From Alphaproteobacteria bacterium (GTDB taxonomy: Bacteria > Pseudomonadota > Alphaproteobacteria > RF32 > CAG-239): a stretch of 64,000 bases of DNA. Where the stretch lies: assembly GCA_045611785.1 (NCBI GenBank), contig JAZKXV010000026.1, positions 20,382-84,381 of the forward strand, given 5' to 3'. Position 1 is the stretch's first letter. The number at the start of each line of letters is the position of its first letter. Position numbers and translations under genes: made by a program. Of this stretch, positions 16,773 to 33,013 are shown piece by piece. Under the pieces are notes generated by a model. It made no database searches. It was not told where the DNA came from and worked only from the letters and a program-made list of their open reading frames with translations.

Positions 16773-16949
16773 TAAAACATTACATTTTAAAAAATATATC
16801 TTGACAAACTAATACTTAATATGTACATTGAAATTGTTCGGGTACTCGAGGGCAATGGGTACGAACATTAACGACGTGGCCGGTCATCATATTAAAATTA
16901 TATATTTTAAATGTTTGATGAGTTGGCCTTTCTAATGAAAGGTTTTTTT

Positions 16950-17480: not shown

Positions 17481-17481
17481 T

Positions 17482-17574
17482 AGAAACTGCGGTTAGTTTC
17501 TTGATTGATTTGGGTCTTGTAGGGACAGTCGAGACAAATCAATAATTAATAACCTACTGTCGAGGAGAAAAAAC
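17482..17574 (+). promoter_or_regulatory. Structured intercistronic RNA, possible pseudoknot sequestering the SD
   Basis: attgatttg..gtct/agacaaatcaat stem; loop gtagg and gacagt complementary to cctac and actgtc adjacent to SD gaggag. Confidence 0.45.
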
Positions 17575-18768: not shown

Positions 18769-18778
18769 GGAACTTGTT

Positions 18779-19294
18779 ATGAGTTTAGAATTAAAAAAAA
18801 GATTTAATAAAATCTTATATACCTTAAAGCATAAAAAAGCATTTTTACAAGTTGAAAAACAGCTAAGAGGGAAAAACACCTGGAGAGGTTATTTACACGA
18901 CGCTGACAAGCCTTTTTTATACATGGCTCTATGGATAAAATTTGAAAACATTCAAAAAATTCATAGAAAAAACAACAGGCATCATGTCAGAAACAATCTA
19001 TCAAAAACAAAGGAAGATTTGTTAGATACAATCATAGATTGGGAATGCGCAAAAATAACCAAACCGGATAAGCCACTTAATGCATATGAAACGCTTATGA
19101 AATATTATCCTGATAAACAAGAAGACTTCTTACCTCTTATCAGAGAATATTTACCGCAACAAATAAAAGATGCCTGCAGAAAACATCAGTTTGAATACAA
19201 AACCAGACACCTTAGATTTGAAAACCATAAAACAAGTTGCAGAATAAACTTATCTGCATTGAATGTTTTTAATCAAAAAAATTTGGGGAGATAA
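18779..19294 (+). CDS. Histidine-rich HD-like hypothetical (DUF5662-like, phage-associated)
   Basis: HKKAF, LHDADKP, HRKNNRHH, IIDWECA. Confidence 0.55.
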   Translation: MSLELKKRFNKILYTLKHKKAFLQVEKQLRGKNTWRGYLHDADKPFLYMALWIKFENIQKIHRKNNRHHVRNNLSKTKEDLLDTIIDWECAKITKPDKPLNAYETLMKYYPDKQEDFLPLIREYLPQQIKDACRKHQFEYKTRHLRFENHKTSCRINLSALNVFNQKNLGR

Positions 19295-19298
19295 AGTT

Positions 19299-19886
19299 GT
19301 GCTGACATTTGAAATTTGGGCAACAATTTTCGGATTGTTGCAAGGTATTCTTGTGCTCTTAAATAACAAATACAATTGGCTGTTTTACATAGCGCAAATC
19401 GGATGTTTAATTGTATTTTCATATTTCAACAAACTATATGCAGACACATTGTGTAACATCATTTACTTAATGTTCGGCATACGAGGATGGATATTATGGA
19501 ACAAAAATAATGCCGTTAAAATCAGCAATTGTTCATTAAAAGAAAAAATTATGTATTCATCCATAATTTGTATCGGTGCATTTTTAATAAATATGGCCTT
19601 AAAAATTACTCCTGACCCATTACCCTTAATTGATGCTGTAACTACATCTTCATCTTTAGTTGCAACATATTATATGGTTAAGAAAAAGTTAGATACATGG
19701 ATAATTTGGTTCATTAATGACATTTGCTACATAATTGAATATTCAATACTGCAAGAACCGGCTTATTATTTGATATCACTGAATACAATCTGGAGCATAA
19801 TGTCTATTATTTCATACTTTAACTGGCGTCGTATTATGAAAGGAGAAAAATATGAAAAAAATATATTTTGCCGGAAAATTCAATAA
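19299..19886 (+). CDS. PnuC-family nucleoside/vitamin transporter
   Basis: Multi-TM; NWLFY, YAD...YL.FGIRGW..W, DAVTTSSSLVATY.M.KK...WIIWFIND; GTG start 8 nt after SD ggggag. Confidence 0.88.
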   Translation: MLTFEIWATIFGLLQGILVLLNNKYNWLFYIAQIGCLIVFSYFNKLYADTLCNIIYLMFGIRGWILWNKNNAVKISNCSLKEKIMYSSIICIGAFLINMALKITPDPLPLIDAVTTSSSLVATYYMVKKKLDTWIIWFINDICYIIEYSILQEPAYYLISLNTIWSIMSIISYFNWRRIMKGEKYEKNIFCRKIQ

Positions 19887-20364
19887 ATCTGAAACACGCC
19901 TAAACTCATTAGAAGGAATGCTAAGAAACGATTATCGTTCACAACTTCTTGGAGATGCAAATTTACTGACGTATTATCAAAAAAACTTAATTATAAACAA
20001 TAAGTTTGAATATATCGGGCCTTTTTATTGCGAACAAGCCTCCAACGGCGATTATACATCAACAGACTGCAAAACCGTACTAAACGCAGAATACAATTTA
20101 ATAAAAAACAGCGATATTTTTGTCGTCGTACTTGGTGAAAGTTTCTCTGTCGGTTCAATAGTCGAGCTTGGATGGGCTTTGCAAGAAAACAAACAAATCA
20201 TAATCTTATATCAAGAAGAAAAATCAGTATATACTATTGCATCAGAATATTGGTTTGCAATTGCCGATGCAATAAATAGATCAAATAACTTATCTGTATT
20301 AAAATATAACAATACAAAAGAAATTGTAAAATTAATTAATCAAGCACTTGAGAAGGAATTATAA
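19852..20364 (+). CDS. Nucleoside 2-deoxyribosyltransferase / N-glycosidase-like protein
   Basis: KIYFAGKF, IKNSDIFVVV, SVGSIVELGWA...K.III (NDT/RCL-type signature). Confidence 0.75.
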   Translation: MKKIYFAGKFNKSETRLNSLEGMLRNDYRSQLLGDANLLTYYQKNLIINNKFEYIGPFYCEQASNGDYTSTDCKTVLNAEYNLIKNSDIFVVVLGESFSVGSIVELGWALQENKQIIILYQEEKSVYTIASEYWFAIADAINRSNNLSVLKYNNTKEIVKLINQALEKEL

Positions 20365-20365
20365 A

Positions 20366-21187
20366 ATGATATACAAAGAATTTGAACTCATACTATCGTC
20401 TTTCAAATGCAACAAAAACTGTCCTTACTGTACAGCAAAAATCACAAAATGGCCGGTTGTAGATGATAAAATAGAAGCATTGGAAAACAAGCTTAAAGAA
20501 TTAAAAGAAAAGGAAATATATTTCAAATATTTCATATTTTGCGGCAACGGAGAACCCTCTTTACATAGTTTTGACACCATAAAAAGAGTGGTCGATGCAA
20601 CACGTAAAATAAACATTTTTGAAGAAAAAAGATTTCAATCATCAGGAAACATATTTTTTGAACCTGAAAAACTCAATTTAATAAAAAATGATTTTACCAT
20701 TGAAATAACCAGAGTAGATTTTGACAGTAAAAAAGATATGCAAATTTTGGGATATAATCAAGATTATATCAACTCTGAAGCCTTTAAAACAGCAAACATC
20801 AGGCTCAATTATGTTTTAATGAAAAACAAAAGTTTTGACACTTACTTAACCGAAATAAAAAAATATATTGATACATATCCAAGCATCAAAACAGTCAGCT
20901 TGAAAACATTAAATTTAAACACATTGAACGGAAAAATTGACAATCCGTATTCTCAATGGATTATAAATAATGCTTTAACAAAAAAAGATGCAAAAAGTAT
21001 AATTGAATTTATGAACAAACATGCAAACATAATTCATCAAGACAAAAAATTTTTTGATAGAATAGAATGGAATTATAAAGGCGTACCAATTACATTTTAC
21101 GTTAAAAAATTGTCTTACGGCGTTTCTAATGTTGTTTGCTATGGCGGTGAGCTTGTCGATTATCATTTAAACAAATTAAGCATATAA
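20366..21187 (+). CDS. Radical SAM protein of unknown function
   Basis: CNKNCPYC and GNGEPSLH; ATG 1 nt after the upstream stop with SD aagga. Confidence 0.85.
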   Translation: MIYKEFELILSSFKCNKNCPYCTAKITKWPVVDDKIEALENKLKELKEKEIYFKYFIFCGNGEPSLHSFDTIKRVVDATRKINIFEEKRFQSSGNIFFEPEKLNLIKNDFTIEITRVDFDSKKDMQILGYNQDYINSEAFKTANIRLNYVLMKNKSFDTYLTEIKKYIDTYPSIKTVSLKTLNLNTLNGKIDNPYSQWIINNALTKKDAKSIIEFMNKHANIIHQDKKFFDRIEWNYKGVPITFYVKKLSYGVSNVVCYGGELVDYHLNKLSI

Positions 21188-21252
21188 TATTAACCAAATA
21201 TTGTATTTTAAATTGTAACATAATTTTCAATTTAAATTATGAGAATATAAAA

Positions 21253-22077
21253 ATGAGATCAGATTTTTTAGAATTTAAAAAATATTATAAAGACACAATA
21301 ATTAAGATACCTGCTGTTTCATTTTTTAAACAATCTATTGATAATAAATTTAAGCATTCACTAAATGTTTTGCACACCGGAATACGTATTATGGCAGAAA
21401 CTCCTGAGCTTGAAAGTATATCTGAAAATTTTCAAATACTAGCTAAAAGAGCTCTCTTATTCCATGATGTCGGCCGTTTTGAAGAAGCTGTAAAAAGATA
21501 CCATACGCCTAATTTGACTGCAGATACAGAAAGCTTAAACCAATATGACCACGGACTTCTTGGTTATCAAACACTAAAAAGTAATCCGACTTATAATGAT
21601 ATAAGAATTTTGCTCGCTATCAAATATCATGGCAAAATGATGGAAGAAGTAAAAGCATCATCATTATGGGAAGAAGCTCAAAACGGAGAGCATAAAAAAG
21701 AAGCTGAACAAATTTTATATTTAGTTCGAGATGCCGATAAATTGGCTAACTTAGAAAAAATTAAAAAAAACGACAAACTGCGAAAAGACTTTTTTTTCAA
21801 GCTATTAACTAAAGAAGCGCTAATTTCTGGCTTATCTCAAACAGTGAAAAAACAATTTTTTGCAAAGCAAACCATTTTGTTTCCGACAGTACATTCTTTT
21901 GCTGATAGAATTTTAATGGTTTTATCATGGTTTTTTGATTTAAATTTCCAAAAATCAAAAGAAATGTTTAAGCAAAAAGAATATACCAAATATCTTTTAG
22001 ATTTACTAGCTCAATACCACACTTTGACAAAAGATATAGAAGAAATCAAGCTGTTTACAGAAGACTCATTTAAGTAA
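21253..22077 (+). CDS. HD-domain phosphohydrolase
   Basis: KFKHS, ALLFHDVGRF, DHG, IKYHG, VRDADKLAN. Confidence 0.85.
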   Translation: MRSDFLEFKKYYKDTIIKIPAVSFFKQSIDNKFKHSLNVLHTGIRIMAETPELESISENFQILAKRALLFHDVGRFEEAVKRYHTPNLTADTESLNQYDHGLLGYQTLKSNPTYNDIRILLAIKYHGKMMEEVKASSLWEEAQNGEHKKEAEQILYLVRDADKLANLEKIKKNDKLRKDFFFKLLTKEALISGLSQTVKKQFFAKQTILFPTVHSFADRILMVLSWFFDLNFQKSKEMFKQKEYTKYLLDLLAQYHTLTKDIEEIKLFTEDSFK

Positions 22078-22198
22078 AATGTAGCAAATCTTAAGCATTT
22101 TTTTGAAAAAAACATTTACTTTTTAATTTTTTTCTCTATAATGCATTCTACAAAAACATTATCAGGTCATATTATTTACTAACTTAATAACACTTCTT

Positions 22199-23101
22199 AT
22201 GAGCAGATTTGTATTAAAAAACACAACCGATGGTACATGTCATTTGTATTTTGATAATCCATCAATTGAAGGCTTTTTAAAGGTAAGTCAAGCAACAAAC
22301 GCTAAATTCTTAAGAGAAAACAACGAGAACTATGTGGTTATGTCTAATGCCGGAGAAACGACCAAAATTTTGTTTGGCATTATTGACGACAGAGTCTTTC
22401 AAGTAACACTGCCTGAACATTCAAAGTTTTTCTTTGTAGACAACCAGTGTATATATGAAAGATATGGAGTGTGGTACAGCATGGTACATGAGCAAGACTC
22501 TTTTGAAGAGAAAAAACTTGGAATTGCACATGAGGAATTCTTATCCTGTCCACAGAACATTCAGTATCGAAAACTTCGCTGGGTATACTTCTTAAAAGAA
22601 GATCAAAACCTTGTAAACATTTGCCATTTTATTGATGGTAAAATTGTCAATTTAGGAAGCTATGTATCGGTTAAAACTGATGGCAATGCAAAAATTTTGG
22701 CTTTGCATTCTGATGGTCATTATGACGTATTCACACCAAATTCAACCGAACCGTACCTAGGTTATCCTAACGAAGTTTTTGAAGCGATAAAAGGCGTGTT
22801 TATATGGTGCTCCGAACAAAAGAAATGGAGATTCGAAGAAAACTGTCGTCTGTACGCTGACAATGCTTTGTTCAGAATTGTGCCCTATGAAGACGGTGAC
22901 ATGTTAAAGCTATATCGCATCACAGAAAACTCAACTGAGTTATTTAAGGCAAGCGTTAACTATCAATTTAGAAACAACCCTTGCAGCCTGTGCATAGACG
23001 ATACAATATACATGCATGACGTTGACAAGTGTTTATTGGATTTCGATAATCCTCAACTAACCTTTAGAAGAAAGCTGAAAAATTTCTTCTGCAAGAAGTA
23101 A
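22199..23101 (+). CDS. Hypothetical beta-rich protein
   Basis: 300-aa ORF with own terminator (ggcttgatacttt/aaagtatcaagcc); SD-less start. Confidence 0.7.
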   Translation: MSRFVLKNTTDGTCHLYFDNPSIEGFLKVSQATNAKFLRENNENYVVMSNAGETTKILFGIIDDRVFQVTLPEHSKFFFVDNQCIYERYGVWYSMVHEQDSFEEKKLGIAHEEFLSCPQNIQYRKLRWVYFLKEDQNLVNICHFIDGKIVNLGSYVSVKTDGNAKILALHSDGHYDVFTPNSTEPYLGYPNEVFEAIKGVFIWCSEQKKWRFEENCRLYADNALFRIVPYEDGDMLKLYRITENSTELFKASVNYQFRNNPCSLCIDDTIYMHDVDKCLLDFDNPQLTFRRKLKNFFCKK

Positions 23102-23258
23102 AGTCTTGGCTTGATACTTTGAAAGTATCAAGCCTTTTTTTATCCTTTTTACATTTCCTAGTGCTTCTACATAAGCCTAACTCACATAAATAAGGTGTAT
23201 AAAAAGCATTGACACAATCTTGATATTTTAGTATTTTAAAAGAAAAAAGAGGATATTA

Positions 23259-24839
23259 ATGGCAACACAAAAAGACATTAATTTAGCTTTTCAGATGATT
23301 GTTTCAACAGCATCTGACATGGATATGTGTTTGCCTCAAGCCGCTAAGCAACACAATGAAAAATTGTCTGTAGATGAACAGAAAAAAATGTTAGCAGCCT
23401 TTGCTCGTTACGTCAGCGAAGGACATCCCGGTTTTGCTACAGAAAATGCACCAAACATTACTTTTTCAGAAGAAACAAAAAATAAATTTAAAACGGAGCT
23501 TGTGAAACTATACTTAACAACCAAACAAGAACGAACAGAAGAAGAAATCGGCAAAGAAATTTTTAAGCTTGCTAAAAAATATATTCCTGATAATCATTTT
23601 AATGTTTACAGTTCCGAAGGGGCAAGCATTAACACATTAATGAGCAAAGAAGAACACCTTGCATTTAAGGAAGAATTGCAAACTTACATACAAACCGAAA
23701 ATCTTGATTCATCTCACCGTTGCGTATTAGATCATCTTTATACGGAGCGCCACCAAGTTGGAAAAAACTTATTTCTTGATGATGAGTTTGAGCTATTAAA
23801 ACAAAATGGTGCAGAAATTGTAAGCGAAAAAAAAGGACAAACTTGGCGCATGGCTGAAATTAATCATCAAGGTAAAAAACTAATGTTGTTTGGGATGAAG
23901 AGTTTTGCACCTATAAGCTCTGATGGCAAAATTGATATAGATAAAATTAATGACTTCACATCTTTAGCAAAAGAATTTTCTAAACAAGAATATGAAAATT
24001 GCGATGCTCTGATTTTAGACTTAAGAAGCAATGGTGGCGGATGGCCGCACATTGGCGATTATATAGCTCGTACATTATATGGAAATACGGTTTCAACAGA
24101 AGCTCAAGGACATCTTAAGATGGATACTTTAGCAGCGAAACTCAGCTATTTTTATATGGAAAAAGCAGATAAAAAAAACAGCACCATCGACAGACTAAAG
24201 CTAAAAGATGAACCGCAACGCACTCAATATGTTCAGCAAGATAAACTTTGGGGAGAAGAACATCCTTTTAATAGTGCATTAGGCTACACAAAGCCAATAT
24301 TGTTACTAACAGACCAAAACACCGGTTCTAATGCAGAGTTAACAATCGGACGCTTAAGAGAACACCCATATGTCAGAACAATTGGTGATCATAGTTGCGG
24401 TGTTATACAATATCACCCGGCGGCCACATCTAACAGCGCTATTCCCTTACCCTATGGCTTAAAAATATCACTTCCTCCTGAAGGCTTTACAAGCACGCAT
24501 GGTGAGCGCTTGGAAGGCACCGGATATGTTCCTGATTATAAAGTAGAAAAAGGACAAAGCGCCTTACTTACCTGTTTAGAAAAATTAGATGAAATAAAAC
24601 AAGAAATTTCACAAAATTTACCACCTGAAAGAACAGTAGAAACAGAAGCAAAAAGAGAAAGCCATATAGATAAAACCGATAACATTATCATTAAAAACAT
24701 TGGAGAAAATAATCCTCAATTAAAAAATGCATTCAATGAATTGCTCAACGCAACATCAACCATTCCGCAATTACAAGCACCTGAGAGGCAAAATGTATAT
24801 TCTCTCCATCAACAAAAATATGGTATACTCACTCATTGA
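23259..24839 (+). CDS. S41-family peptidase with N- and C-terminal extensions
   Basis: LILDLRSNGGG, KPILLLT...TGSNAE, RTIGDHSCG, EGTGYVPD. Confidence 0.85.
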   Translation: MATQKDINLAFQMIVSTASDMDMCLPQAAKQHNEKLSVDEQKKMLAAFARYVSEGHPGFATENAPNITFSEETKNKFKTELVKLYLTTKQERTEEEIGKEIFKLAKKYIPDNHFNVYSSEGASINTLMSKEEHLAFKEELQTYIQTENLDSSHRCVLDHLYTERHQVGKNLFLDDEFELLKQNGAEIVSEKKGQTWRMAEINHQGKKLMLFGMKSFAPISSDGKIDIDKINDFTSLAKEFSKQEYENCDALILDLRSNGGGWPHIGDYIARTLYGNTVSTEAQGHLKMDTLAAKLSYFYMEKADKKNSTIDRLKLKDEPQRTQYVQQDKLWGEEHPFNSALGYTKPILLLTDQNTGSNAELTIGRLREHPYVRTIGDHSCGVIQYHPAATSNSAIPLPYGLKISLPPEGFTSTHGERLEGTGYVPDYKVEKGQSALLTCLEKLDEIKQEISQNLPPERTVETEAKRESHIDKTDNIIIKNIGENNPQLKNAFNELLNATSTIPQLQAPERQNVYSLHQQKYGILTH

Positions 24840-25137
24840 TATCGATTAGTTTACTAATTATATTCTTTATTGCTTACTCTGGTCACAGAATTATCAATAT
24901 GGTTGTTTTTCATTATACCAATCATCTCTATCATAATTGACGAATCAATTCTTCTAACATTGTTTGGTTATATCGTTAAATTTGAAATTCATGATAAAAA
25001 GAATTTAACAAGCATACCATAAGCCTTCAGTTTTTTTATTTGTTTTAAGTAAGTTGGCACATAACAATAGCATTAGCAAATATTAAATGTTCAAAACATA
25101 TCCTCATAACAAGGTAAACTAATAAAGATAAAAAATA

Positions 25138-25254
25138 GAAAACAACAATTTTCCGAAAATTAGACATGAAAATATTTGATTTTTATAATAAAATAGACTA
25201 ACATCTGCCCACTATTAAAAATTATGATGTCTAACTATTTAAATATTATGAATT
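25138..25254 (+). repeat. Cassette leader/promoter module, copy A
   Basis: High identity to 26365-26479 and 27428-27543; TTGATT-17-TAACAT; ctgcccact after the -10 box. Confidence 0.9.
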
Positions 25255-25671
25255 ATGAAAAAGTTTGTTTTTATGCTAATTGCAATGTTTAGTGTTGTGT
25301 TGACAGCTTGTTCAGCATTTGACAGTGACCCGATTGAACCAAAAATCATTGGTACCGGTAATTTGCAATATGAAGCAAAAACTGGTACTTGGTTTGTGGT
25401 TATAGATTCAACTCAATACACTATCACCAGTGTGACTATTCCCGAACACAGTCCTCGTACATTAGGTCATACGCAAGACATTGATCCAGTTGAAGGAATG
25501 TTGGTGACAGTGTTTACTTCAGAGCATATGAGAGGCCTGCAAGCTGTTACTGGTGAGCAGTCAGTTAAGCAGATAGAAGAGTTTTATCATACCAATGATA
25601 CGGGAGTCTTTGTTGTATTTGGAATTTTGTTATTGTGTATTATCGGAATTGCTATTCCATGGAAAAAATAA
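25255..25671 (+). CDS. Lipoprotein with C-terminal TM helix (cassette A cargo)
   Basis: LTAC lipobox; hydrophobic C-terminus. Confidence 0.75.
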   Translation: MKKFVFMLIAMFSVVLTACSAFDSDPIEPKIIGTGNLQYEAKTGTWFVVIDSTQYTITSVTIPEHSPRTLGHTQDIDPVEGMLVTVFTSEHMRGLQAVTGEQSVKQIEEFYHTNDTGVFVVFGILLLCIIGIAIPWKK

Positions 25672-25733
25672 AACCCATATACACAGATAGTCTCAAATAC
25701 TGTAAAACAGATAAACATTAAAAACTTTATGTT

Positions 25734-26027
25734 ATGAAAACAGAGAAAATTAAAGGGCAAATTGTGAGCCAACCACAAGTATTGACAGATGAAACTTCTG
25801 CTCTCGTACTGCTTGTTATAAAAAACGATGAGGGTTATAAAGAATTGCATTATAACAGAGGGAAGTTTTCTTCAAGCGCGACTTTGGCACTTAATTTTGC
25901 AAATTCGAAATTTTCTAAAATCGCTACATCTTCTATCGGTGAAACTATCGAAGCATATATATGTAGCTCTACGGGTGAAATTTTTAGGTTTAAAAACGTA
26001 ACGCGTGGTGACGTGGAATGTTTATAA
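25734..26027 (+). CDS. Hypothetical 97-aa protein, paralog of 27802-28095
   Basis: 49/97 identical by manual ungapped alignment. Confidence 0.8.
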   Translation: MKTEKIKGQIVSQPQVLTDETSALVLLVIKNDEGYKELHYNRGKFSSSATLALNFANSKFSKIATSSIGETIEAYICSSTGEIFRFKNVTRGDVECL

Positions 26028-26038
26028 AACCAATCCCT

Positions 26039-26137
26039 ACCCCTCACAATTTTATTATTGTGAGGGGTTTCCATTATCTAAAATATTATACTTAAAAAAC
26101 CACCCGAAAGGGTGGTTTTATTTGGTCGGATTGACTA
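26039..26137. repeat. Cassette end module: two hairpins plus 15-bp copy of the tRNA-Pro 3' end
   Basis: acccctcacaa/ttgtgaggggt hairpin, aaaaccaccc-gaaa-gggtggtttt hairpin, tggtcggattgacta at 26123-26137; near-identical to 28109-28208. Confidence 0.92.
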
Positions 26138-26227
26138 CCCCTAAATTAGAAAAAAAATACCATATTTTAAACAATAGAAATTTTTTATTCTTTTTCAGAG
26201 TGTTATGAGAGAGTGGTCGAACCTTCT

Positions 26228-26479
26228 CATCCATACTGGTGAGGTTGACTTTTGTTCACCGCCCACTAGGTGTGGTAATAATTTTTTTATTGTTTTTCAA
26301 TGAAATACACTGACCACCAGGTTCTAACTTGACTTTTGTATTTTTTAAGAATGGTAACAAATCAGAAAACAATATTTTCCGAAAATTAGACATAAAAAAT
26401 ATTTGATTTTTATACTAAAATAGATTATCATCTACCCACTATTTGAAATTATGATGTCTAACTGTTAAATTTATGTATT
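26228..26479 (+). repeat. 252-bp extended leader module, copy B
   Basis: Colinear with 27292-27543; includes TTGATT-17-TATCAT promoter. Confidence 0.9.
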
Positions 26480-27106
26480 ATGAAAAAACTTATTATTATT
26501 GCCGTAACACTATTTATGGCAACAAATGTGTTCGCACAAGAGATTGTTGAAGTCACTAACGTAGAATGGAAACGTTTCTCAACCAGTAGGTACTATACTG
26601 GACGCTACTTGGATTTTCACACGAGCCGTGTATATTTTTCCGATGGAAGTTGTATTTATTACAACAATATCCGTAACGATGAAAAATGGCAAGGTTGGTG
26701 GAATGGAGATGCATATAATCCACAAAAAGTCAGCTTCCCAGTTACTTTAGGTAGTAACATTATAGGTCAAAAGTTTCAAAAGAGATACAACAGCTATACC
26801 CGTGTTAGCTTGCAAAAGGTCGGTACCTACACTATCAAAAAAGTATCAGTGCACGATGTAAATTCCGAGTTTACTGCATCAATGAAGGCTGATTTTAGTT
26901 ATAGAAGCTTTCTCTATCGCAGAGCAAGCGGTTCTGCATCAGGTTCTGCTAAGGGTGGTACAAGAACAATTGTCAACATTTTCTTTGAAAATGGCAAAAA
27001 GGCAACCATTGAAGCTTCAGAAGATCCTATTTGGCTAGATGCCGAACCTGGAATGCAAGTAGAACATTATCGAATTGGCGATAAAAACTTCTATAATCTT
27101 CTCTAA
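26480..27106 (+). CDS. Secreted hypothetical protein (cassette B cargo)
   Basis: Signal peptide ending VFA-Q; beta-rich. Confidence 0.75.
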   Translation: MKKLIIIAVTLFMATNVFAQEIVEVTNVEWKRFSTSRYYTGRYLDFHTSRVYFSDGSCIYYNNIRNDEKWQGWWNGDAYNPQKVSFPVTLGSNIIGQKFQKRYNSYTRVSLQKVGTYTIKKVSVHDVNSEFTASMKADFSYRSFLYRRASGSASGSAKGGTRTIVNIFFENGKKATIEASEDPIWLDAEPGMQVEHYRIGDKNFYNLL

Positions 27107-27110
27107 TAAA

Positions 27111-27167
27111 AACTAATTACCCCTCACAATTTTTATTGTTGTGAGGGGTTTTCTTTATCTAAAATAT
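27111..27167. repeat. Cassette terminator module, 57 bp identical to 28101-28157
   Basis: Direct sequence identity. Confidence 0.92.
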
Positions 27168-27291
27168 CACTTTCATTTTTTTAAATGCTTCACCCAAACA
27201 CCCGAGCATGTTAACAATGCAATTTGACAACTTGGTTGTCAAATCTTTGTAATTCAAAGTGTTACGCGTATTATTGTTTTATTGGAGTTCG

Positions 27292-27543
27292 CATCCACAC
27301 TGGTGAGGTTAACACTTGTTCACTGCCCACTTGTTTTGTAAATTTTTTTTGTTGTTTTTCAATGAAATACACTGACCACTAGGTTCTAACTTGACTTTTG
27401 TATTTTTCCAAGCATTGGCGTGACGTGGAAAACAATGATTTTCCAAAAATTAGACGTAAAACCATTTGATTTTTATAATCAAATAGATTATCATCTGCCC
27501 ACTAATAAAAATTATGATGTTAACTATTTAAATATTATGAATT
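27292..27543 (+). repeat. 252-bp extended leader module, copy C
   Basis: Colinear with 26228-26479. Confidence 0.9.
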
Positions 27544-27765
27544 ATGAAGAAAATTATCGGTTTTATTGAAGCTCCTTTTGAGGATTTTATTATTCCTTTA
27601 ACAATTGTTATTATAGGCGTTGTTCTTTTTATTGTTATTTATAATAAGGAAAATAAACGTGTTAATAAATACAGAAAAGACGTTCAACAAAAAATTGTTA
27701 ACGATGAATTTGCCAAAAAAATTGCTGACAAGTATAAAAGCAATGACAATGATGTAATAGAATAA
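27544..27765 (+). CDS. Small single-TM protein (cassette C cargo)
   Basis: Starts at the same position after the leader module as cargo A and B; one TM helix. Confidence 0.65.
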   Translation: MKKIIGFIEAPFEDFIIPLTIVIIGVVLFIVIYNKENKRVNKYRKDVQQKIVNDEFAKKIADKYKSNDNDVIE

Positions 27766-27801
27766 ACAAAAAAAGTAAATAACCGTTAAAAACTTTGTGT
27801 T

Positions 27802-28095
27802 ATGAAAGTAAAAGTAATTACAGGACAACTTGCGTGTCAACCAGTGGTATTATCAAATGAAAGTCAGGCTCTCGTGCTAATAGTTGTAAAAAATAATGAG
27901 GGATATAGAGAAGCGCATAGAAACTCACGTGCATCTTGTTTAAACAAGTCTTTGTCGTGGAATTATGCAAATACCATATTTTCTCATATCGCTACATCTT
28001 CTATAGGCGAAACTGTTGAGATAAAAATCTCTGACGATAATGGCGAAATCCTTGATTTTAAAAACATAACTCGTCAAAACGCTATGTGTAAGTAA
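27802..28095 (+). CDS. Hypothetical 97-aa protein, paralog of 25734-26027
   Basis: Same taaaaactttRtgttATG start context; shared IATSSIGET and FKN.TR. Confidence 0.8.
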   Translation: MKVKVITGQLACQPVVLSNESQALVLIVVKNNEGYREAHRNSRASCLNKSLSWNYANTIFSHIATSSIGETVEIKISDDNGEILDFKNITRQNAMCK

Positions 28096-28193
28096 AATTT
28101 AACTAATTACCCCTCACAATTTTTATTGTTGTGAGGGGTTTTCTTTATCTAAAATATTATACTTAAAAAACCACCCGAAAGGGTGGTTTTATT

Positions 28194-28325
28194 TGGTCGG
28201 ATTGACTAGATTATTCCGCTTTGCTACATGCTTTGCACTCATCGGCTTCGCCGACCGGCGTCTTAACATCCGCCTTTCGTTTGATGTACGAACTAGCTTT
28301 TTCGCTAGTTCGAACCTAGACCCGA
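28194..28325. repeat. 132-bp palindromic tRNA-Pro-derived element, copy 1
   Basis: Begins with 19 bp of the tRNA 3' end, internal hairpins, ends with an inverted tRNA-like arm. Confidence 0.85.
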
Positions 28326-28370
28326 AAATCAAATAACAAAAAAGCACCACAAGGGTGCTCTTTTGTTATT

Positions 28371-28502
28371 TGGTCGGATTGACTAGATTGGCTTCGCTAC
28401 ATGCTCGGCACTCATCGGCTTTCAGCCGACCGGCGTTCTTACGCCCGCCTTTCGCTTGAAGTGCAAACTAGCTTCTTCGCTAGTTCGAACCTAGACCGAC
28501 CA
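28371..28502. repeat. 132-bp palindromic tRNA-Pro-derived element, copy 2
   Basis: tggtcggattgactagatt ... ttcgaacctagaccgacca; colinear with copy 1. Confidence 0.85.
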
Positions 28503-28538
28503 TACAAAAAGGGGCGCTCTAAAGCACCCCTTTTTTGT

Positions 28539-28615
28539 TGGTCGGATTGACTAGATTCGAACTAGCGACCTCTTCGACCCGAACGAAGCGTTCTACCAGG
28601 CTGAACTACAATCCG
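28539..28615 (-). tRNA. tRNA-Pro (CGG)
   Basis: Cloverleaf cggattg...caatccg-acca, anticodon loop ttCGGgt, TTCGAAT T-loop, encoded CCA. Confidence 0.97.
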
Positions 28616-28750
28616 ATTAATTGCTTAAATACTAATACATCAATATTTTTTTAATACAAGCTTTTTTTTCAAAAACTTACAAAAAAATATAGCTTTTTTC
28701 TTTTATAATCATATAATTTATATATATTTTTTTATTTGAAAGGAACTCAA

Positions 28751-29572
28751 ATGCTTAATATCGGTTGTCATTTATCTTCTTCTAAAGGGTTTGTGGCCAT
28801 GGCTCAAAATGCCATTTCTATCAACGCAAGCACTTTTCAGTTTTTTACCAGAAATCCGCAAGGCTCAAAAGCAAAAGATATTGACATCGAAGATATAAAA
28901 AAGTTTCTTTCAATTTTTCCTGATAAAAAAATTGTAGCCCACGCTCCTTACACTCTAAATCCGTGCTCAGATAACCCAAGTACCGCTGAATTTGCTGAAC
29001 TGGTTTTTATTGATGATCTAAAACGCATGGAACTTATACCTCACAACTATTATAACTTTCATCCAGGAAGTCATGTAGGACAAGGCGCTGAAATAGGCAT
29101 TAAAAAAATTGCGGATCTACTTAATAAAATTATAACGCCGACACAAACCACAACCATCTTATTAGAAACAATGTCCGGTAAAGGAAGCGAAGTAGGATCA
29201 ACCTTTGAAGAAATCCAAAGCATTATTAACCTTACCGAACTAAAAGATAAAATCGGAGTTTGTTTAGACACTTGCCATGTATATTCTGCCGGATACGACA
29301 TTGTAAATGAGTTGGATTCAGTTTTAGAAAAATTTGATAATATCATCGGCTTAAACAAGCTAAAGGCCATACACTTAAACGATAGTAAAATGCCATTTAA
29401 CTCTCGTAAAGACAGACACGAGCAAATTGGTAAAGGCTCAATCGGTATTGACGCCACTGTAAATATAATTAATCACCCTAAATTAAAGCACCTACCCTTT
29501 ATTTTAGAAACTCCAAACGATATAAATGGTTGGAAACAAGAAATTGATTTATTAAGAAATTTGAGCTTATAA
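28751..29572 (+). CDS. nfo: Endonuclease IV (AP endonuclease)
   Basis: [51 protein letters not shown]. Confidence 0.95.
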
Positions 29573-29631
29573 AGCACAAAAAAAAAGGAAGTAATTTTAC
29601 AAAACCACTTCCTTTTTTAAGGCTGTTTTAT

Positions 29632-30609
29632 CTACAATATATTTATTTTTCCATCAACAGTAATTTCTGCCTCACCACCTAATGGAATGGTTGCAATAGG
29701 TGTTGTATGACCCATATCAATATTGGCAATTATAGGCATATCTTTAAGCTCAGGTTTGTTCTTTAATATAAACTCTAATTTTTCACGAGTAACCTTTGAG
29801 GCTTTTTGGAAACGTCCGATTACCAAACCTTTAACATTTTTAAAATCATCCTGATTGATTAAGGCCTGCAAATTTCGTTCAAATGTCAACAAATCTGACA
29901 TTTCATCATCTTCTAAAAACAATATTGTATCTTCATTAAAGCTAGGACGATATTGTGTTCCCATATGCAAAATAAAAGTGCATAAATTTCCACCAATTAT
30001 TGTACCTTTTGCTGCTCCTTTTTGAAGATGCCACCAACCTTCATTTTCAATAAAAGTTCTATTTTCTTGGTCCAAAAACCACATCTCATCACTCCATTCT
30101 TTTGATGCTTTAAGCTCTTGAGAGTGTCCTTCAAAAAGAGTTTTAACCATATTTTCTAATGTATACTCAATTCCTTTTAACATACCTAAGGAACTATAAT
30201 GAGGTCCATAATATGTAACCAAACCTGTTTTAGCATAAATAGCCGTATGCAAAGCGGTTATATCTGAAAAGCCCATAAATATTTTAGGATTATTTCTGAT
30301 TAAGTCATAATCTAAGTGTTTAATAAGTTGGTTAGAATTAAAACCACCAATTACTGTCAAAACAGCTTTTACAGATTTATCGGCAAAAGCACTATGAATG
30401 TCATCAACACGTTTTTTTATATCTGTAGAAATTGTTAAATCGCAATTTTCATCTATTGTATTAGGCGCAAAGACAACTTTTAAGCCTAAGTTTTTAAGTC
30501 TTTCCTCAGCAATTTGTCTGCAGTCTGCACCAATAAGTTTCAAACTTCTTGATGGCGCAATAATCATCACTTTATCGCCTTTTTTTAGCCTTTGAGGTAT
30601 AATCGCCAT
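29632..30609 (-). CDS. S66 peptidase (LD-carboxypeptidase/MccF-like)
   Basis: IAPS, GGFNSN, GFSDITAL, GGNL, FLED, DMGHTTP. Confidence 0.9.
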   Translation of the reverse strand: MAIIPQRLKKGDKVMIIAPSRSLKLIGADCRQIAEERLKNLGLKVVFAPNTIDENCDLTISTDIKKRVDDIHSAFADKSVKAVLTVIGGFNSNQLIKHLDYDLIRNNPKIFMGFSDITALHTAIYAKTGLVTYYGPHYSSLGMLKGIEYTLENMVKTLFEGHSQELKASKEWSDEMWFLDQENRTFIENEGWWHLQKGAAKGTIIGGNLCTFILHMGTQYRPSFNEDTILFLEDDEMSDLLTFERNLQALINQDDFKNVKGLVIGRFQKASKVTREKLEFILKNKPELKDMPIIANIDMGHTTPIATIPLGGEAEITVDGKINIL

Positions 30610-30628
30610 TTTAATATTCTCCTTAATT

Positions 30629-32287
30629 TTATTGTTCTTGATATATGTGTAAAAACGTTACAGGTTTTATATCTGTTGCTTTTAAAACTCTTTTTCTGAT
30701 ATGCCCTTTAATAAAATCTGTCACTTGAGAATTTATACATTTACATTCTTTAAGTTTTGTATTTATTAAAGGAATAACGATTTCTTTAATTTCTTCAACC
30801 AAATTGTTCCAATCTGCTTCTTCCAAAATATCAATAGAAGAAACCTGCAAATCTTTTAACTCTAAACTCTGTGAAACAACAGCGCTGATAAACATTGAAC
30901 AATTATATGCTATACGGCGTCTGTTTTGAACCAGCTCAGAATTAAGTGAAACACTGCGACCTCTGTCCACTCCGATAACATCTGAAATTGTTTCTTCAAT
31001 TTTAGCAATTTTGCCATCAGAAAGTAAAAATATATCGCCATTTTTACCGGAACAAACATCTTGAACACCGCATGATAAAGCAAATCGTTTATGTTCTCTG
31101 ATAAAACGTTTATCACCATGAACCGGAAAAACAATTTTTGGTTTCAAAATTTCATACATTTGTCTTAGTTCTTCTTTTGAAGCATGACCTGAAGTATGTA
31201 CCAAGTCTGTTTCTTCAGTAATAATTTTAACACCTTTAATTGCCATTTGCTCTTGCATTCTTTCAATTTTATCTTCATTTCCCGGAATAATTTTTGAAGA
31301 AAAAATTATAGTATCATCTTTACTTAAACTAACATACTTGCTTTCACCCTTAGCAATTTGGCTTAAAGCACTGCGATAATTCGCTTGTGAACCAGTACAA
31401 ATATACATTGCTTTATCTGATGTAATATCTTTTGCTTCATCTGCACTGTAAGTATTCGGCATATCCTTAAAATATCCGCATTCTTTTGCTATCTTCATAT
31501 TTGTAAGCAATGTTTTGCCCATTAAAATCGGTGTTCTTTGTGCAAGGTCTGCCGCAATAATCAAACTCTCCAAACGCATTAAGTTAGAGGCAAAACAAGT
31601 TACTATCAAACCTCCCTTAATTTGCGGAATAAGGGTACATAAACTTTGACGCACATCATATTCAGAACATTGATTTTCATCAATTGATACGTTTGTTGAA
31701 TCGCAAACAAATAAATCTATACCCTCTTTGGCAATTTGCTTTAACTTATCTATCGGACTTTTTAGCATTTCGGTTTTTGCATCATCAAAACGCCAATCTG
31801 TAGCATGAAAAATATTTTGATATTCTGTTTTAATAAACAATCCGCAAGTTTGAGGCACCGAATGCACTAATGATACAAACTCAACCTCAAATTCTTTGAG
31901 CTTAACGTTCATAGTTTCATTAACGCATATAAGTTCGACCTCATTTTCCATTTTATATTCTTTAAGTCTTTCTGTAATTAAGGCTAAAGCAAAATCCGTA
32001 CCATAAACCGGACACCTTAAACATGGCCATATATGAGCAATTGCTCCCATATGATCTTCATGAGCATGAGTAATAAAAATGCCCTCAATATCTTGAGCAT
32101 AATCTTTCAAAAATTCAGGAGAAGCATAGCACATATCCATTCCCGGATAGTCATCATTTAAAAAGCCATAACCTACATCAACTATAATCCATTTTCCGTT
32201 TGATGAATATGCAAACATATTCATGCCAATATCATCAGCACCACCAATCGGAATAAAATAAACTCCTGTTTTTTTAAAGCTTTCCAT
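30629..32287 (-). CDS. rnj: Ribonuclease J
   Basis: GGADDIGMN, THAHEDHMG, HSVP, FASNLMR, HTSGHA, PVHG. Confidence 0.93.
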   Translation of the reverse strand: MESFKKTGVYFIPIGGADDIGMNMFAYSSNGKWIIVDVGYGFLNDDYPGMDMCYASPEFLKDYAQDIEGIFITHAHEDHMGAIAHIWPCLRCPVYGTDFALALITERLKEYKMENEVELICVNETMNVKLKEFEVEFVSLVHSVPQTCGLFIKTEYQNIFHATDWRFDDAKTEMLKSPIDKLKQIAKEGIDLFVCDSTNVSIDENQCSEYDVRQSLCTLIPQIKGGLIVTCFASNLMRLESLIIAADLAQRTPILMGKTLLTNMKIAKECGYFKDMPNTYSADEAKDITSDKAMYICTGSQANYRSALSQIAKGESKYVSLSKDDTIIFSSKIIPGNEDKIERMQEQMAIKGVKIITEETDLVHTSGHASKEELRQMYEILKPKIVFPVHGDKRFIREHKRFALSCGVQDVCSGKNGDIFLLSDGKIAKIEETISDVIGVDRGRSVSLNSELVQNRRRIAYNCSMFISAVVSQSLELKDLQVSSIDILEEADWNNLVEEIKEIVIPLINTKLKECKCINSQVTDFIKGHIRKRVLKATDIKPVTFLHIYQEQ

Positions 32288-32290
32288 CCT

Positions 32291-33013
32291 TTAACTTTCT
32301 TTTACAAATAAATCGCCGACTAAAATTTTTTTTATTTCTTCATTTGTTTTTAAAACCATGGCACCATTATCATCAATAGTTAAAAAAATTCCATCTATTG
32401 TTTGTTTTTCTTGTTTTATTAAAACAGCATTACCCAGATTATACGCATTGTCAAGCCATGTTTGCTTAATCTGACTAAATCCGCTTGTTTGATAGTGTTC
32501 TAAAAGTTTATCTAAAACATTAGTTAGATGCTCTAACACGCTCAACCTGTCGATATAAATTCCTAAATTGTGTAAACTTGTCGCGTTGTATTTTATATCA
32601 ACAAGTTCAGGATTTGAAACAATATTTATACCAACACCCATAACCCAAAAATTATCATCTGCTTTTTCAAACAATATTCCGGAAATTTTTTCACCATTAA
32701 CCAAAACATCATTTGGCCACTTAACTTCTATCTTAGCATCTTTAATAAAATGGCTGATTGTTTTTAACACCGCAACAGCACTTAATATAACCATGTGGCA
32801 CAACTCATTTGCTTTAATTTCAAAAGCAAATGATGCAAACAAATTTCCCTTTTGGCTCACCCAAGAATTACCTCTTCTGCCTCGTCCGCCGGTTTGTTCT
32901 AGAGCCGATACAATACATGGTTGCTTTAATTTAGCAACTAATGATTTGGCATCATCATTAGTGCTTACAACATTTAAATTATCTTGCCATATCCAATTTT
33001 TTATTTGTTTCAT
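32291..33013 (-). CDS. birA: Biotin--protein ligase (group I, no HTH)
   Basis: STNDDA, QTGGRGRRGNSWVS, KWPNDVLVNGEKISGIL, GVGIN. Confidence 0.95.
   Translation of the reverse strand: MKQIKNWIWQDNLNVVSTNDDAKSLVAKLKQPCIVSALEQTGGRGRRGNSWVSQKGNLFASFAFEIKANELCHMVILSAVAVLKTISHFIKDAKIEVKWPNDVLVNGEKISGILFEKADDNFWVMGVGINIVSNPELVDIKYNATSLHNLGIYIDRLSVLEHLTNVLDKLLEHYQTSGFSQIKQTWLDNAYNLGNAVLIKQEKQTIDGIFLTIDDNGAMVLKTNEEIKKILVGDLFVKES

Follow-up and report, generated by a model that had tools for sequence, protein, structure and literature searches.

How small genes come to be exchanged at a chromosomal site with no recombinase gene nearby is the question raised by the 3' end of the tRNA-Pro(CGG) gene in an uncultured low-GC gut alphaproteobacterium. 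In the 64,000-nucleotide stretch of DNA that was analysed, hereafter the window, three small gene units were located next to this tRNA gene, at 25138-26137 (A), 26365-27167 (B) and 27428-28212 (C), and a promoter/leader of about 116 bp and a terminator hairpin, H1, were common to all of them. Pfam scans showed the surrounding genes to be chromosomal housekeeping genes, including glgB, RNase H, pyrophosphatase, nfo, RNase J and fabF. From sequence comparisons, the locus appears to be a gene-shuffling hotspot that varies among strains in unit number and cargo and has no recombinase gene nearby. We put a probability of about 0.6 on the reading that it is a strain-variable islet, whose cassettes are swapped by homologous recombination at standard flanks and stacked on old integration scars in the tRNA T-loop. 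Every feature described in the original prediction was found in place, among them the leaders, the cargo starts at the same offset, the 97-aa ORFs and the H1 copies that make up the architecture shared by the three units:

25138-25254, + strand: leader A (repeat alignment, motif search)
25255-25671, + strand: cargo A, a 138-aa predicted lipoprotein with lipobox LTAC and a C-terminal transmembrane segment, ORFan
25734-26027, + strand: A97, a 97-aa protein of a rare family, predicted OB fold (AF2 model made on its paralogue C97)
26039-26068, + strand: H1 copy a, stem CCCCTCACAA..TTGTGAGGGG
26096-26119: H2 copy a, AAAACCACCCGAAAGGGTGGTTTT, bidirectional, terminator-like
26365-26479, + strand: leader B, candidate promoter TTGATT-17-TATCAT
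26480-27106, + strand: cargo B, a 208-aa predicted secreted all-beta ORFan, signal peptide end VFA|Q
27119-27149, + strand: H1 copy b, stem CCCCTCACAA..TTGTGAGGGG
27428-27543, + strand: leader C, candidate promoter TTGATT-17-TATCAT
27544-27765, + strand: cargo C, a 73-aa predicted single-pass membrane protein
27802-28095, + strand: C97, 97 aa, predicted OB fold (AF2 pLDDT 88)
28109-28139, + strand: H1 copy c, stem CCCCTCACAA..TTGTGAGGGG
28167-28190: H2 copy c (inverted-repeat and direct-repeat search)

The three leaders were 78-88% identical across 93 nt, and the cargo ORFs of A, B and C started at an identical offset relative to them. In the 64-kb window, the sequence TTTTCCGAAAATTAGAC was present only at the three leaders, as was the 29-mer CATCTGCCCAC...GATGT, for which the chance expectation is 0. 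Leader A contained a candidate sigma-70-type promoter (TTGATT at 25176-25181, a 17-nt spacer and TAACAT at 25199-25204) and a second candidate (TAGACA-17-TATAAT, 25161-25189), followed by a predicted 5' UTR of about 50 nt, and the pattern TTGNNT-17-TANNNT was present in all eight aligned leaders (8/8). Each cassette carries its own predicted sigma-70-type promoter and 5' leader. At the other end, H1 is a near-perfect GC-rich hairpin followed by a T-run, a predicted intrinsic terminator, and the motif search placed its three copies at 26040-26067, 27120-27148 and 28110-28138 and nowhere else in the window (chance expectation 0). The second hairpin that was expected with a tRNA 3' end after units A and C was also found: H2 and the tRNA end (26096-26137 and 28167-28212) lie within an 88-nt repeat, its two copies 97% identical and spaced 2071 nt apart. 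H2 with a tRNA 3'-end copy was often located downstream of a cassette.

The cargo genes were ORFans throughout. Cargo A had no match in Pfam, PHROGs, PADLOC or NCBIfam; its protein is 98.6% identical over 138 aa in L001 and L002, and its DNA is 100% identical in L242. Cargo B combines a hypervariable N-terminal half with a conserved C-terminal half, and a homologue of cargo C in L006 is 69% identical. PHROGs gave no significant match for any cargo protein of the window, the only weak one being the 73-aa protein against phrog_26666 (E = 0.0024). A97 and C97 share 51% amino-acid identity (E = 4e-35) and about 70% nucleotide identity. In the AF2 model of C97 the secondary-structure elements follow the OB-fold order, and Foldseek gave weak SSB/PriB-like matches (best 1ue6_B, E = 1.2e-3, TM 0.5-0.6); C97 had no sequence match in the PDB and no Pfam match above threshold, with T4_baseplate below it (E = 4e-4). 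The view that the cargo consists of envelope proteins therefore holds for the membrane or secreted partners and fails for the recurrent 97-aa family, a predicted cytoplasmic OB-fold protein. Typically, as far as these models indicate, the cargo would be a small predicted cytoplasmic OB-fold protein that has a membrane or secreted protein as its partner, and our guess is that it forms a two-gene conflict or defence-type module.

The absence of a recombinase from the window, as originally predicted, was borne out by Pfam scans of nearly all ORFs of at least 120 aa, which revealed no integrase, resolvase or transposase domain; a few window ORFs were identified solely through their L242 counterparts, and some had no Pfam match. 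Among the genes called in L242 and L253-L256, none had a Phage_integrase or other recombinase domain, no recombinase gene was located within 8-10 kb at the compared loci, and no integrase, conjugation or phage gene fragment survived at any of more than 10 loci.

Comparisons among strains and species showed where the variation lies. Three same-species contigs (L242, L244 and L246) carry unit A alone, against three units in the window, which refutes the alternative of an invariant locus explained by one old tandem duplication. Positions 1-7330 of L242 correspond to window positions 18808-26137 (98.65%) and positions 7311-11944 to 28366-33000, so that the window has an excess of 2248 bp, flanked by a 20-24-nt tRNA-end repeat, TTATTTGGTCGGATTGACTA. 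The order of the three units rests on a single assembly, since none of the comparator contigs, mostly short metagenome assemblies, spans the A-to-B or the B-to-C joint. Strain differences started and stopped at shared non-coding modules. Between the window and L242, identity was 100% over 25130-25729, fell to 40-90% over 25730-25999 (the body of the 97-aa ORF), returned to 100% over 26000-26119 and was 86% at the tRNA-end junction (26120-26137). In L242, L244 and L246 the A97 ORF body is replaced, between 100% identical flanks, by a C97-like allele, which in L242 is 90-97% like C97. In L257 and L258, an OB-like gene of unrelated length (89 aa) takes the place of the 73-aa cargo C, and around it the leader is 93-97% and C97 97-100% identical (leader C as a whole, 90-97%). 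L001 and L002 depart from the window immediately past H1, at 26070. Within the window, identity reaches 88% between leaders A and C and 97% between the H1-H2-core blocks, exceeding the roughly 70% nucleotide identity of the A97 and C97 coding sequences.

The same modules recur in other species. In L253 and L254 a block of X segment, leader, cargo B, H1 and H2 directly adjoins tRNA-Pro; identity to the window is 94.6% for H1-H2 and 90-97% for the C-terminal half of cargo B, against 72.6% for the syntenic housekeeping flank. The leader and H1 were found in related species around other cargo beside tRNA-Pro, tRNA-Thr and tRNA-Met (the last in L256), and in L006 beside trpB. At one tRNA-Thr locus the same leader and H1 enclose cargo of 52 and 97 aa in L004 and of 100 and 171 aa in L255. 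Variable neighbours in the relatives included restriction-modification genes (L006), T5orf172 (L254), AAA_14/DUF4143 (L255) and an APH-type kinase (L007). The predicted recombination between modules is directly visible in these comparisons, because the exchanges of cargo and ORF bodies (L242, L257) fall exactly at leader and terminator modules, the modules flank unrelated cargo, and a recombinase is absent nearby.

Between and beyond the units lie tRNA-end copies and intervening segments:

26123-26137, - strand: partial 15-nt copy of the tRNA-Pro 3' end at the X-segment junction, decayed
26138-26364, + strand: X segment, whose right ~120 nt (26224-26345) form two hairpins and a T-run (folding)
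27150-27427, + strand: Y segment, unique except for the X-like repeat at 27288-27407
28194-28212, - strand: displaced tRNA-Pro nt 58-76 (15-mer search and alignment)
28213-28370: u1 with terminator hairpin at 28330-28372 (direct/inverted repeats)
28371-28389, - strand: displaced tRNA-Pro nt 58-76 (15-mer search and alignment)
28390-28538: u2 with terminator hairpin at 28496-28545 (direct/inverted repeats)
28539-28615, - strand: intact tRNA-Pro(CGG) (tRNA search)

The 15-mer TGGTCGGATTGACTA was present at 26123, 28194, 28371 and 28539, four copies against 0.06 expected, and all three of the predicted extra tRNA-Pro 3'-end copies were thereby located. Two repeats were absent from the original prediction. 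One, of about 120 nt, precedes leaders B and C (26224-26345 and 27288-27407); the X segment is conserved in L007 (8460-8704, 84%) and in L253 and L254. The other is u, an element of about 100 nt in which the local tRNA 3' end is copied in both direct and inverted orientation; it makes up the two stretches of about 170 bp between the last three tRNA-end copies (28213-28365 and 28390-28535). The direct and inverted copies are about 95 nt apart, and in u2 the tRNA-Pro T-arm and CCGACCA are repeated in inverted orientation. The full-length displaced copies abut u, with their inner boundary in the T-loop at nt 57|58, and this boundary recurs with a conserved u-side flank, ..GAAGCC|, beside tRNA-Pro, tRNA-Met and tRNA-Leu in relatives.

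The copy at 26123 has a length of only 15 nt, beginning at nt 62, and its junction recurs in L007 (~8476-8495) and L253 (~7651-7668). From this comparison, the leftmost att-like junction (26123-26137) is decayed and inherited across species, which argues against current att-specific excision there. The L253 version of this X-side junction appears to descend from a foreign tRNA-Pro acceptor sequence; given the decay and this foreign-like copy, the X-side block was probably moved by homologous recombination together with the old junction.

The sequence comparisons show homologous recombination or gene conversion between conserved non-coding modules, by which cargo, ORF bodies and whole cassettes are swapped among strains and species. 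Exchange involves the leader, a short segment preceding the 97-aa gene, and the block that begins at the 3' end of this gene and runs across H1 and H2 as far as the tRNA end. Each cassette would be self-contained, with a predicted promoter and leader, one or two small ORFs and the H1 terminator, and the standard flanks may serve as portable homology arms while keeping every insert insulated between predicted transcription signals. The blocks would be stacked between direct tRNA 3'-end copies of 15-24 nt, putative scars of site-specific integration by a recombinase encoded elsewhere. This site-specific step is inferred from the scars alone, because neither a recombinase nor an excised circle nor an empty site with an identical junction was seen at the compared loci.

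Direct tRNA-end repeats with tandem blocks are also the classic signature of genomic islands (PMC4383910, PMC5704250), and the locus might instead hold successive ordinary integrase-bearing islands that entered at tRNA-Pro and decayed, the shared flanks being paralogues of one small, duplicating and gene-converting operon. The 97-aa-family gene or a distant paralogue in most cassettes fits this explanation, as do the variable neighbours in L006, L254, L255 and L007, which are typical of island cargo. We nevertheless consider it unlikely: more than 10 loci lack any fragment of integrase, conjugation or phage genes, cassette B and the L255 cassette lack a canonical 97-aa gene yet have the leader and H1, the replacements are precise and module-bounded in backgrounds that are otherwise 100% identical, and between species the modules are better conserved than the housekeeping flanks. 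Part of the similarity among the shared flanks could stem from the descent of a paralogous operon family from one ancestor, with gene conversion keeping its members alike, rather than from mobile signals. Even less probable is a remnant of a prophage or phage satellite, to which we give very little credence. Its cassettes would be moron-like, a moron being defined by the promoter-gene-terminator layout (PMC2839356), and the sub-threshold T4_baseplate match of C97 (E = 4e-4) and the match of the left part of L003 to phrog_3939 point that way; but the window and related loci lack phage genes, PHROGs gave no significant cargo match, L003 is probably chimeric, and nothing related was found by BLAST against 50,697 phage records or in five of six IMG/VR scans, the sixth returning loci that were screened only for similarity to the window.

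The structure of u suggests another possibility, namely dedicated, integron-like capture in which u is a folded, structure-specific recombination site and a host or distant recombinase inserts promoter-bearing cassettes at tRNA T-loops. Folded recombination sites to which u can be likened are attC and the forked-hairpin attP of the CTX phage. Consistent with capture, u is conserved next to tRNA-Pro, tRNA-Met and tRNA-Leu in several species with both ends matching the local tRNA, compensatory changes preserve pairing in its internal hairpins, the nt 57|58 junction is precise, no local integrase is present, and single-strand folding gave z-scores of -2.4 to -4.3 in 5/7 copies with a terminal stem in 4/7. 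We regard it as distinctly improbable, given that the terminal stem is missing in 3/7 copies, u does not follow A or B in the window and forms u-only units without cargo, the searched loci yielded no candidate recombinase, and the inverted copy can also be read as a palindrome grown across the tRNA terminator. An assembly artefact, in which building the metagenome-assembled genome collapsed repeats or joined them into chimeras, would account for a repeat-rich locus where L245 and L247 begin inside the 97-aa gene, L008 and L039 stop at u, and L003 looks chimeric. It is scarcely credible for repeats that are at most 117 nt long and mostly diverged (78-88%), with unique sequence at the joints (the left parts of X and Y), cassette A found independently in L001, L002, L242, L244 and L246, cargo B in the protein P0020, at 100% identity, as well as in L253, and C97 in L257 and L258.

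Module-bounded exchange on old tRNA scars shares properties with several known systems. To our knowledge, there is no integrase-bearing element cognate to these blocks, and no ICE or IME gene remnants were seen at the loci examined. Stacked between putative tRNA-end scars with no recombinase nearby, the blocks thus look like cis-mobilizable elements (CIMEs) that have accreted at a tRNA gene. Such elements, and their tandem accretion at tRNA genes, have been described (Pavlovic 2004; Bellanger 2011; reviewed in PMC5704250), and here too blocks without integrase or transfer genes lie in tandem at one tRNA between direct att-like 3'-end repeats, the block 26138-28212 containing only cargo genes between 15- and 19-nt copies. 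Unlike CIMEs, the blocks are tiny (0.17-2.1 kb), one junction is decayed, and homologous exchange inside the blocks generates much of the variation. Displaced tRNA-gene fragments mark island endpoints, and the Islander definition requires an integrase gene (PMC4383910); the intact tRNA, the displaced direct 3' fragments (28371, 28194 and 26123) and the crossover in the T-loop region resemble such islands, whereas the integrase gene is absent from every block, which places them outside that definition.

Like an integron, the locus is an ordered array of small swappable cassettes with strain-variable content, and the notion that it is integron-like in logic without intI or attC stands as far as swappable cassettes and the absence of intI (Pfam) are concerned. 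In contrast to integrons, there is no attI, attC-type sites were not recognised, and the cassettes have their own predicted promoter and terminator instead of a common Pc promoter; judged without an attC covariance model, the cassette ends are the near-perfect H1 hairpin and not an attC-like imperfect palindrome. A gene or gene pair with its own predicted promoter and terminator between other genes also recalls phage morons, but a prophage context is lacking, and the recombination breakpoints fall at flanking signals that are conserved. In the PeSL (promoter-early stem-loop) cassettes of T4-type phages, ORFans of the hypervariable regions lie between conserved promoter and stem-loop motifs of about 100 bp (Arbiol et al. 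2010, PMC2839356; Comeau et al. 2014, PMC4122927); where close relatives differ by an indel or a replacement, the difference falls at these motifs, homologous recombination between them has been proposed, and no dedicated recombinase is known (PMC2839356, PMC4122927). Here, likewise, promoter and stem-loop motifs flank ORFans, indels and replacements among close relatives map to them, and the inserts bring their own predicted expression and insulation signals, with no dedicated recombinase known. The differences are that the cassettes lie on a bacterial chromosome, outside T4-type hyperplastic regions, and are unrelated in sequence; that the promoter and the terminator form distinct modules, with X or Y, or H2 and a tRNA-end copy, as spacers; and that the cassettes are linked to tRNA 3' ends, with tRNA-end copies interspersed among them.

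Three co-oriented cassette units were found upstream of the 3' end of a tRNA-Pro gene, each consisting of a leader of ~116 bp, its own cargo gene and a common terminator hairpin (H1).

Cassette units, u elements and tRNA gene in the window
25138-26137: unit A, leader 25138-25254, cargo of 138 aa, lipoprotein-like
26365-27167: unit B, leader 26365-26479, cargo B208 (26480-27106; 208 aa, signal peptide)
27428-28212: unit C, leader 27428-27543, cargo C73 (73 aa, single-pass membrane protein)
28213-28365 and 28390-28535: two copies of u, an element between tRNA-end copies
28539-28615, minus strand: tRNA-Pro(CGG)

The leaders are 78-88% identical, two leader motifs were confined to the three leader sites within the 64-kb window, and the cargo ORF starts at a constant offset from the leader in all three units. 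Units A and C additionally contain a 97-aa ORF, the two copies of which (A97 and C97) share 51% identity. All three units are closed by the H1 hairpin CCCCTCACAA..TTGTGAGGGG, of which 0 copies were expected by chance; in units A and C, a second hairpin (H2) and then a tRNA 3'-end copy come after it. The repeat made up of H2 and the tRNA-end copy measures 88 nt and is 97% identical between the two units at a spacing of 2071 nt, and the 15-mer of the tRNA end was found four times in the window, compared with 0.06 copies expected. The leaders, the cargo offset, H1 and the repeat of H2 with the tRNA end thus bear out the shared architecture of the original prediction. Its claim that the window lacks a recombinase also held for nearly all ORFs of at least 120 aa, with no recombinase domain in the ORFs scanned; none was found among the called genes within 8-10 kb of the comparator cassette loci. 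Searches for recombinases and cassettes covered the window and the loci fetched around specific genes.

GC content is level throughout the region (about 0.31-0.34), and the array is surrounded by common chromosomal genes, namely those for glycogen enzymes, RNase H, pyrophosphatase and RNase J together with nfo and fabF. A 50-aa hydrophobic ORF (24870-25022) lies between leader A and an S41 peptidase gene and has 100% conservation in two contigs of the same species, L001 and L002. A Schlafen/AlbA_2-domain protein is encoded at 8688-9812, where gene orientation and GC skew switch (about 8.1-8.7 kb); domains of this type are frequent in defence-related genes. The conserved cluster at 16911-22077, which encodes cytidylyltransferase-like, CofE/F420-ligase-like, PnuC, nucleoside 2-deoxyribosyltransferase-like, radical SAM and HD hydrolase proteins, may have a role in nucleoside or cofactor salvage or modification. 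In L253 (792-3897), a contig from another species, the cytidylyltransferase-like, PnuC, deoxyribosyltransferase-like and radical SAM genes are kept and the CofE-like and HD genes are missing.

The best match of a promoter scan inside each leader was TAGACA-17-TATAAT (10-11 of 12 positions). An overlapping TTGATT-17-TATCAT was returned in leaders B and C, and TTGATT-17-TAACAT was recognized by inspection in leader A. Because TTGNNT-17-TANNNT is the sole motif kept in all eight leaders, which come from at least five genomes, it is the likely promoter, and the predicted 5' UTR would then be ~50 nt. H1 scored as an intrinsic terminator in sequence-based prediction, and H2, a symmetric hairpin abutting the tRNA-end copy, is predicted to be able to terminate the oppositely oriented tRNA as well. 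Leaders B and C are both preceded by a conserved stretch of ~90 nt with two hairpins and a T-run (26215-26300 and 27279-27362), which is also present in L253 (7740-7825) and in the contig L007 (8568-8655), where it precedes an APH-type kinase gene. The stretch, which ahead of leader B is part of the X segment (X, 26138-26364), may act as an insulating terminator or encode a small RNA; before leader C it has lost the good fold (z = +1.25). Rfam searches at gathering thresholds and at permissive E-values returned tRNAs only and left u, X, the leader and the hairpins unmatched. ORFs on the minus strand of u and of the leader/X region were rejected as genes, their similarity being DNA identity and the L007 copy containing stops.

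To compare strains, contigs of the same species were found via the exact protein of nfo, the gene beside the tRNA, and their shared flanks are 96-99.8% identical. The closest relatives of nfo came from human and ruminant gut MAGs with the label Alphaproteobacteria, and the best species representative was 83% identical. Three same-species contigs (L242, L244 and L246) show the order S41 peptidase, unit A, H1, H2, tRNA-end copy, one u, tRNA-Pro and nfo, and units B and C are missing from them. Relative to this arrangement, the window carries an extra 2248 bp (26138-28365), bounded by TTATTTGGTCGGATTGACTA. In a 30-nt identity profile against L242, the window is 100% identical over 25130-25729, 40-90% over the body of the 97-aa ORF (25730-25999), 100% over 26000-26119 and 86% at the tRNA-end junction (26120-26137). 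The ORF body of L242 is instead 90-97% identical to C97 of the window, and such a C97-like body inside identical flanks shows that it was exchanged between cassettes. L257 and L258 retain H1, leader C (93-97% identical) and C97 (97-100% identical), and the slot between leader and C97 contains an 89-aa gene in place of the 73-aa gene; its product is distantly paralogous to the 97-aa family (hhalign probability 96%). L001 and L002 match the window at 99% to 26070, just past H1, and beyond this point run into an unrelated 260-aa gene on the opposite strand. Kinship of this gene with a 263-aa gene in L007 was considered and rejected, the two being unrelated.

Cassette number, order and content are variable within one species, and the breakpoints are located at shared modules. 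The locus is therefore neither invariant nor a single old duplication, the two situations that would have spoken against the proposed cassette swapping, since unit number and content differ among same-species contigs. An old duplication is further disfavoured because the non-coding modules are 88-97% identical, compared with about 70% nucleotide identity for the coding sequence between them. Short metagenome contigs make up most of the comparators, and the A-to-B and B-to-C joints are known from the window assembly alone. The left part of one contig, L003, was set aside: its positions 1-743 are Firmicutes-phage-like DNA with Shine-Dalgarno sites and a phrog_3939 match, joined in frame within the 97-aa gene at window position 25819, and L003 is probably an assembly chimera, or otherwise a real recombinant.

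Related cassettes were also observed in other species and at other tRNA genes. In L253 and L254, whose left flank is syntenic with 16.8-21.2 kb of the window, a u element precedes a block of partial tRNA end, X, leader, B208 homologue, H1 and H2 that lies directly against tRNA-Pro. Between the window and L253, identity is 94.6% for H1-H2, 90-97% for the C-terminal half of the B protein gene and up to 100% for parts of the leader, compared with 72.6% for the syntenic housekeeping flank. Since the cassette is better conserved than the flank, it would be younger than the split of the two species or under unusually strong constraint. Four other loci carry the same leader and H1.

Further loci with the same leader and H1
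L004, 2874-3630: downstream of tRNA-Thr, 52-aa membrane protein and 97-aa protein
L255, 5203-6581: tRNA-Thr locus as in L004, 100-aa OB-like protein and 171-aa multi-pass membrane protein
L256: beside tRNA-Met, small membrane protein and 105-aa relative of the 97-aa family
L006: after trpB, 72 aa and 97 aa

In L255, a partial tRNA-Thr 3'-end copy is located at about 5512, immediately before the leader. Beyond the L006 cassette lie a tRNA-end-like sequence and, after it, a restriction-modification system. The tRNA-Pro islet of L007 has cargo unlike that of the window (263 aa, 312 aa and the APH-type kinase), the junction of tRNA end and X as in the window, and u elements at both ends. Variable genes adjacent to cassettes include the restriction-modification system with HTH controller in L006 (1960-3708), a T5orf172/MUG113 protein in L254 (440-1156) and an AAA_14/DUF4143 ATPase in L255 (9343-10596), all of them typical hotspot cargo.

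The full displaced tRNA-end copies all begin at T-loop nt 58 (tRNA orientation), and their u-side flank is conserved, with ..GAAGCC at the boundary; both features were seen at tRNA-Pro (window and L253), tRNA-Met (L256) and tRNA-Leu (L039). Site-specific integration into a tRNA gene is typically marked by a displaced 3' fragment whose boundary lies in the T-loop (PMC4383910), and stacked integrase-less blocks are described as cis-mobilizable elements, CIMEs (PMC5704250). The u element itself is conserved, ~100 nt long and located beside tRNA-Pro, tRNA-Met or tRNA-Leu in several gut alphaproteobacterial species.

Copies of u outside the window
L256: 14038-14134
L253: 7502-7594 and 9717-9795
L039: 184-275
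L007: 6353-6454 and 9660-9758

A profile built from the known copies found about 24 in the related loci and the window. On the plus strand of the window, u begins with the displaced tRNA end (direct copy, nt 58-76), followed by a central region of two small hairpins whose pairing is kept through compensatory changes, such as GGCG/CGCC to GGCACAC/GTGTGCC and TCGGC/GCCGA to TGCC/GGCA. In the next hairpin, the 3' strand and the following bases are a sense copy of nt ~46-59 of the local tRNA, and the distal parts are a degenerate copy of nt 60-76 and then a terminator hairpin; the inverted copy spans nt ~46-76 overall. Both the direct and the inverted pieces vary with the adjoining tRNA (Pro, Met or Leu). 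Folded as single-stranded DNA, u gave z-scores of -2.4 to -4.3 in five of seven copies, and the terminal stem between its tRNA-derived ends formed in only four of the seven. The options for u are an attP arm, a folded attachment site, a palindrome grown across the tRNA terminator, or a small RNA, for which G-U pairs favour the tRNA strand. A serine-recombinase signature (2-nt overlap of direct nt 58-76 and inverted nt 46-59) was dropped because the inverted copy is a degenerate full nt 46-76, a palindrome across the terminator. The 'tRNA-Glu' and permuted tmRNAs called inside u by ARAGORN (relaxed) were rejected, being absent from the sister copy.

The junctions bear on how the variation arises. 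The junction at 26123-26137 retains just 15 nt of the tRNA end, and this type is common to L007 and L253 in progressively decayed form. The L253 junction is like the window-type acceptor sequence and unlike the tRNA-Pro of L253 itself, and thus the block appears to have been transferred with its old junction attached. Homologous recombination, which could for example have followed transformation or transduction, accounts for this pattern better than att-specific excision does. The stack would first have been built by integration, of which the scars would be the record, and homologous exchange at conserved modules is the best explanation of the present-day variation. A cassette system in a clade of gut alphaproteobacteria, operated at tRNA T-loops by a recombinase in trans with u as a folded, structure-specific att site, appears improbable to us. 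Promoter-bearing cassettes may in that case be inserted and excised at u by a host-encoded or distant recombinase, u may be an analogue of integron attC or of the CTX phage attP with its forked hairpin, and the conserved OB-fold protein might be a single-strand-binding accessory factor. Searches of mobile elements returned the following. IMG/VR pattern scans for the u T-arm, H1, X, the leader and the 97-aa gene gave mostly nothing, or chance and tRNA matches, and none of the 32 loci with the H1 pattern was window-like beyond the hairpin. In metagenome DNA, the H1 pattern matched unrelated hairpins among the matches listed, and BLAST against phage and plasmid records matched the tRNA only. A match to MT836925 was rejected as an unrelated bacterial fragment.

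Pfam, PHROGs, PADLOC and NCBIfam returned nothing significant for any of the cargo proteins. The 97-aa family has 19 members among 5.8 billion proteins, all metagenomic. The AF2 model of C97 (pLDDT 88) has the strand and helix order expected for an OB fold and matched SSB and PriB structures weakly (best E = 1.2e-3, TM 0.5-0.6), and C97 had no match among PDB sequences. B208 is a secreted, all-beta ORFan with no sequence or fold match in PDB, a hypervariable N-terminal half and a conserved C-terminal half. The C-terminal half is near-invariant across the family, which in L256 has two members (7418-8041 and 8549-9187), the second a tandem mosaic; the pattern would fit diversifying selection on a surface or secreted protein. 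A small cytoplasmic predicted-OB-fold protein is recurrently paired with a membrane or secreted protein in the variable tRNA-linked region. This pairing and the nearby restriction-modification, T5orf172 and AAA_14/DUF4143 genes lead us to guess at a two-gene module of conflict or defence type.

If this account is true, promoter- and terminator-guided gene shuffling extends beyond T4-type phages to a bacterial chromosome and is coupled there to tRNA-linked integration scars, providing a testable model for the trial and exchange of small ORFans in uncultured, poorly known gut bacteria. Among the genes exchanged are those for membrane proteins, secreted proteins and a new predicted-OB-fold family, and u, previously undescribed, could represent either a novel small RNA or a novel type of attachment site. 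Each cassette combines a predicted strong promoter with a slot and a double terminator, which makes the cassettes naturally suited to use as portable expression units in the clade. Compared with integrons, the array is without intI, has a promoter for each cassette and contains no recognized attC; with no integrase found, it does not qualify as an island in the Islander sense either. The closest system in logic is the promoter-early stem-loop (PeSL) cassettes of T4-type phages, in which conserved promoter and stem-loop motifs flank ORFans, near-identical genomes differ at the motifs and no recombinase is known (PMC2839356, PMC4122927), whereas the array described here lies outside any phage. 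In its tRNA-side layout, the closest is CIME accretion (PMC5704250). The array is a variation on these known kinds of system and forms no separate category.
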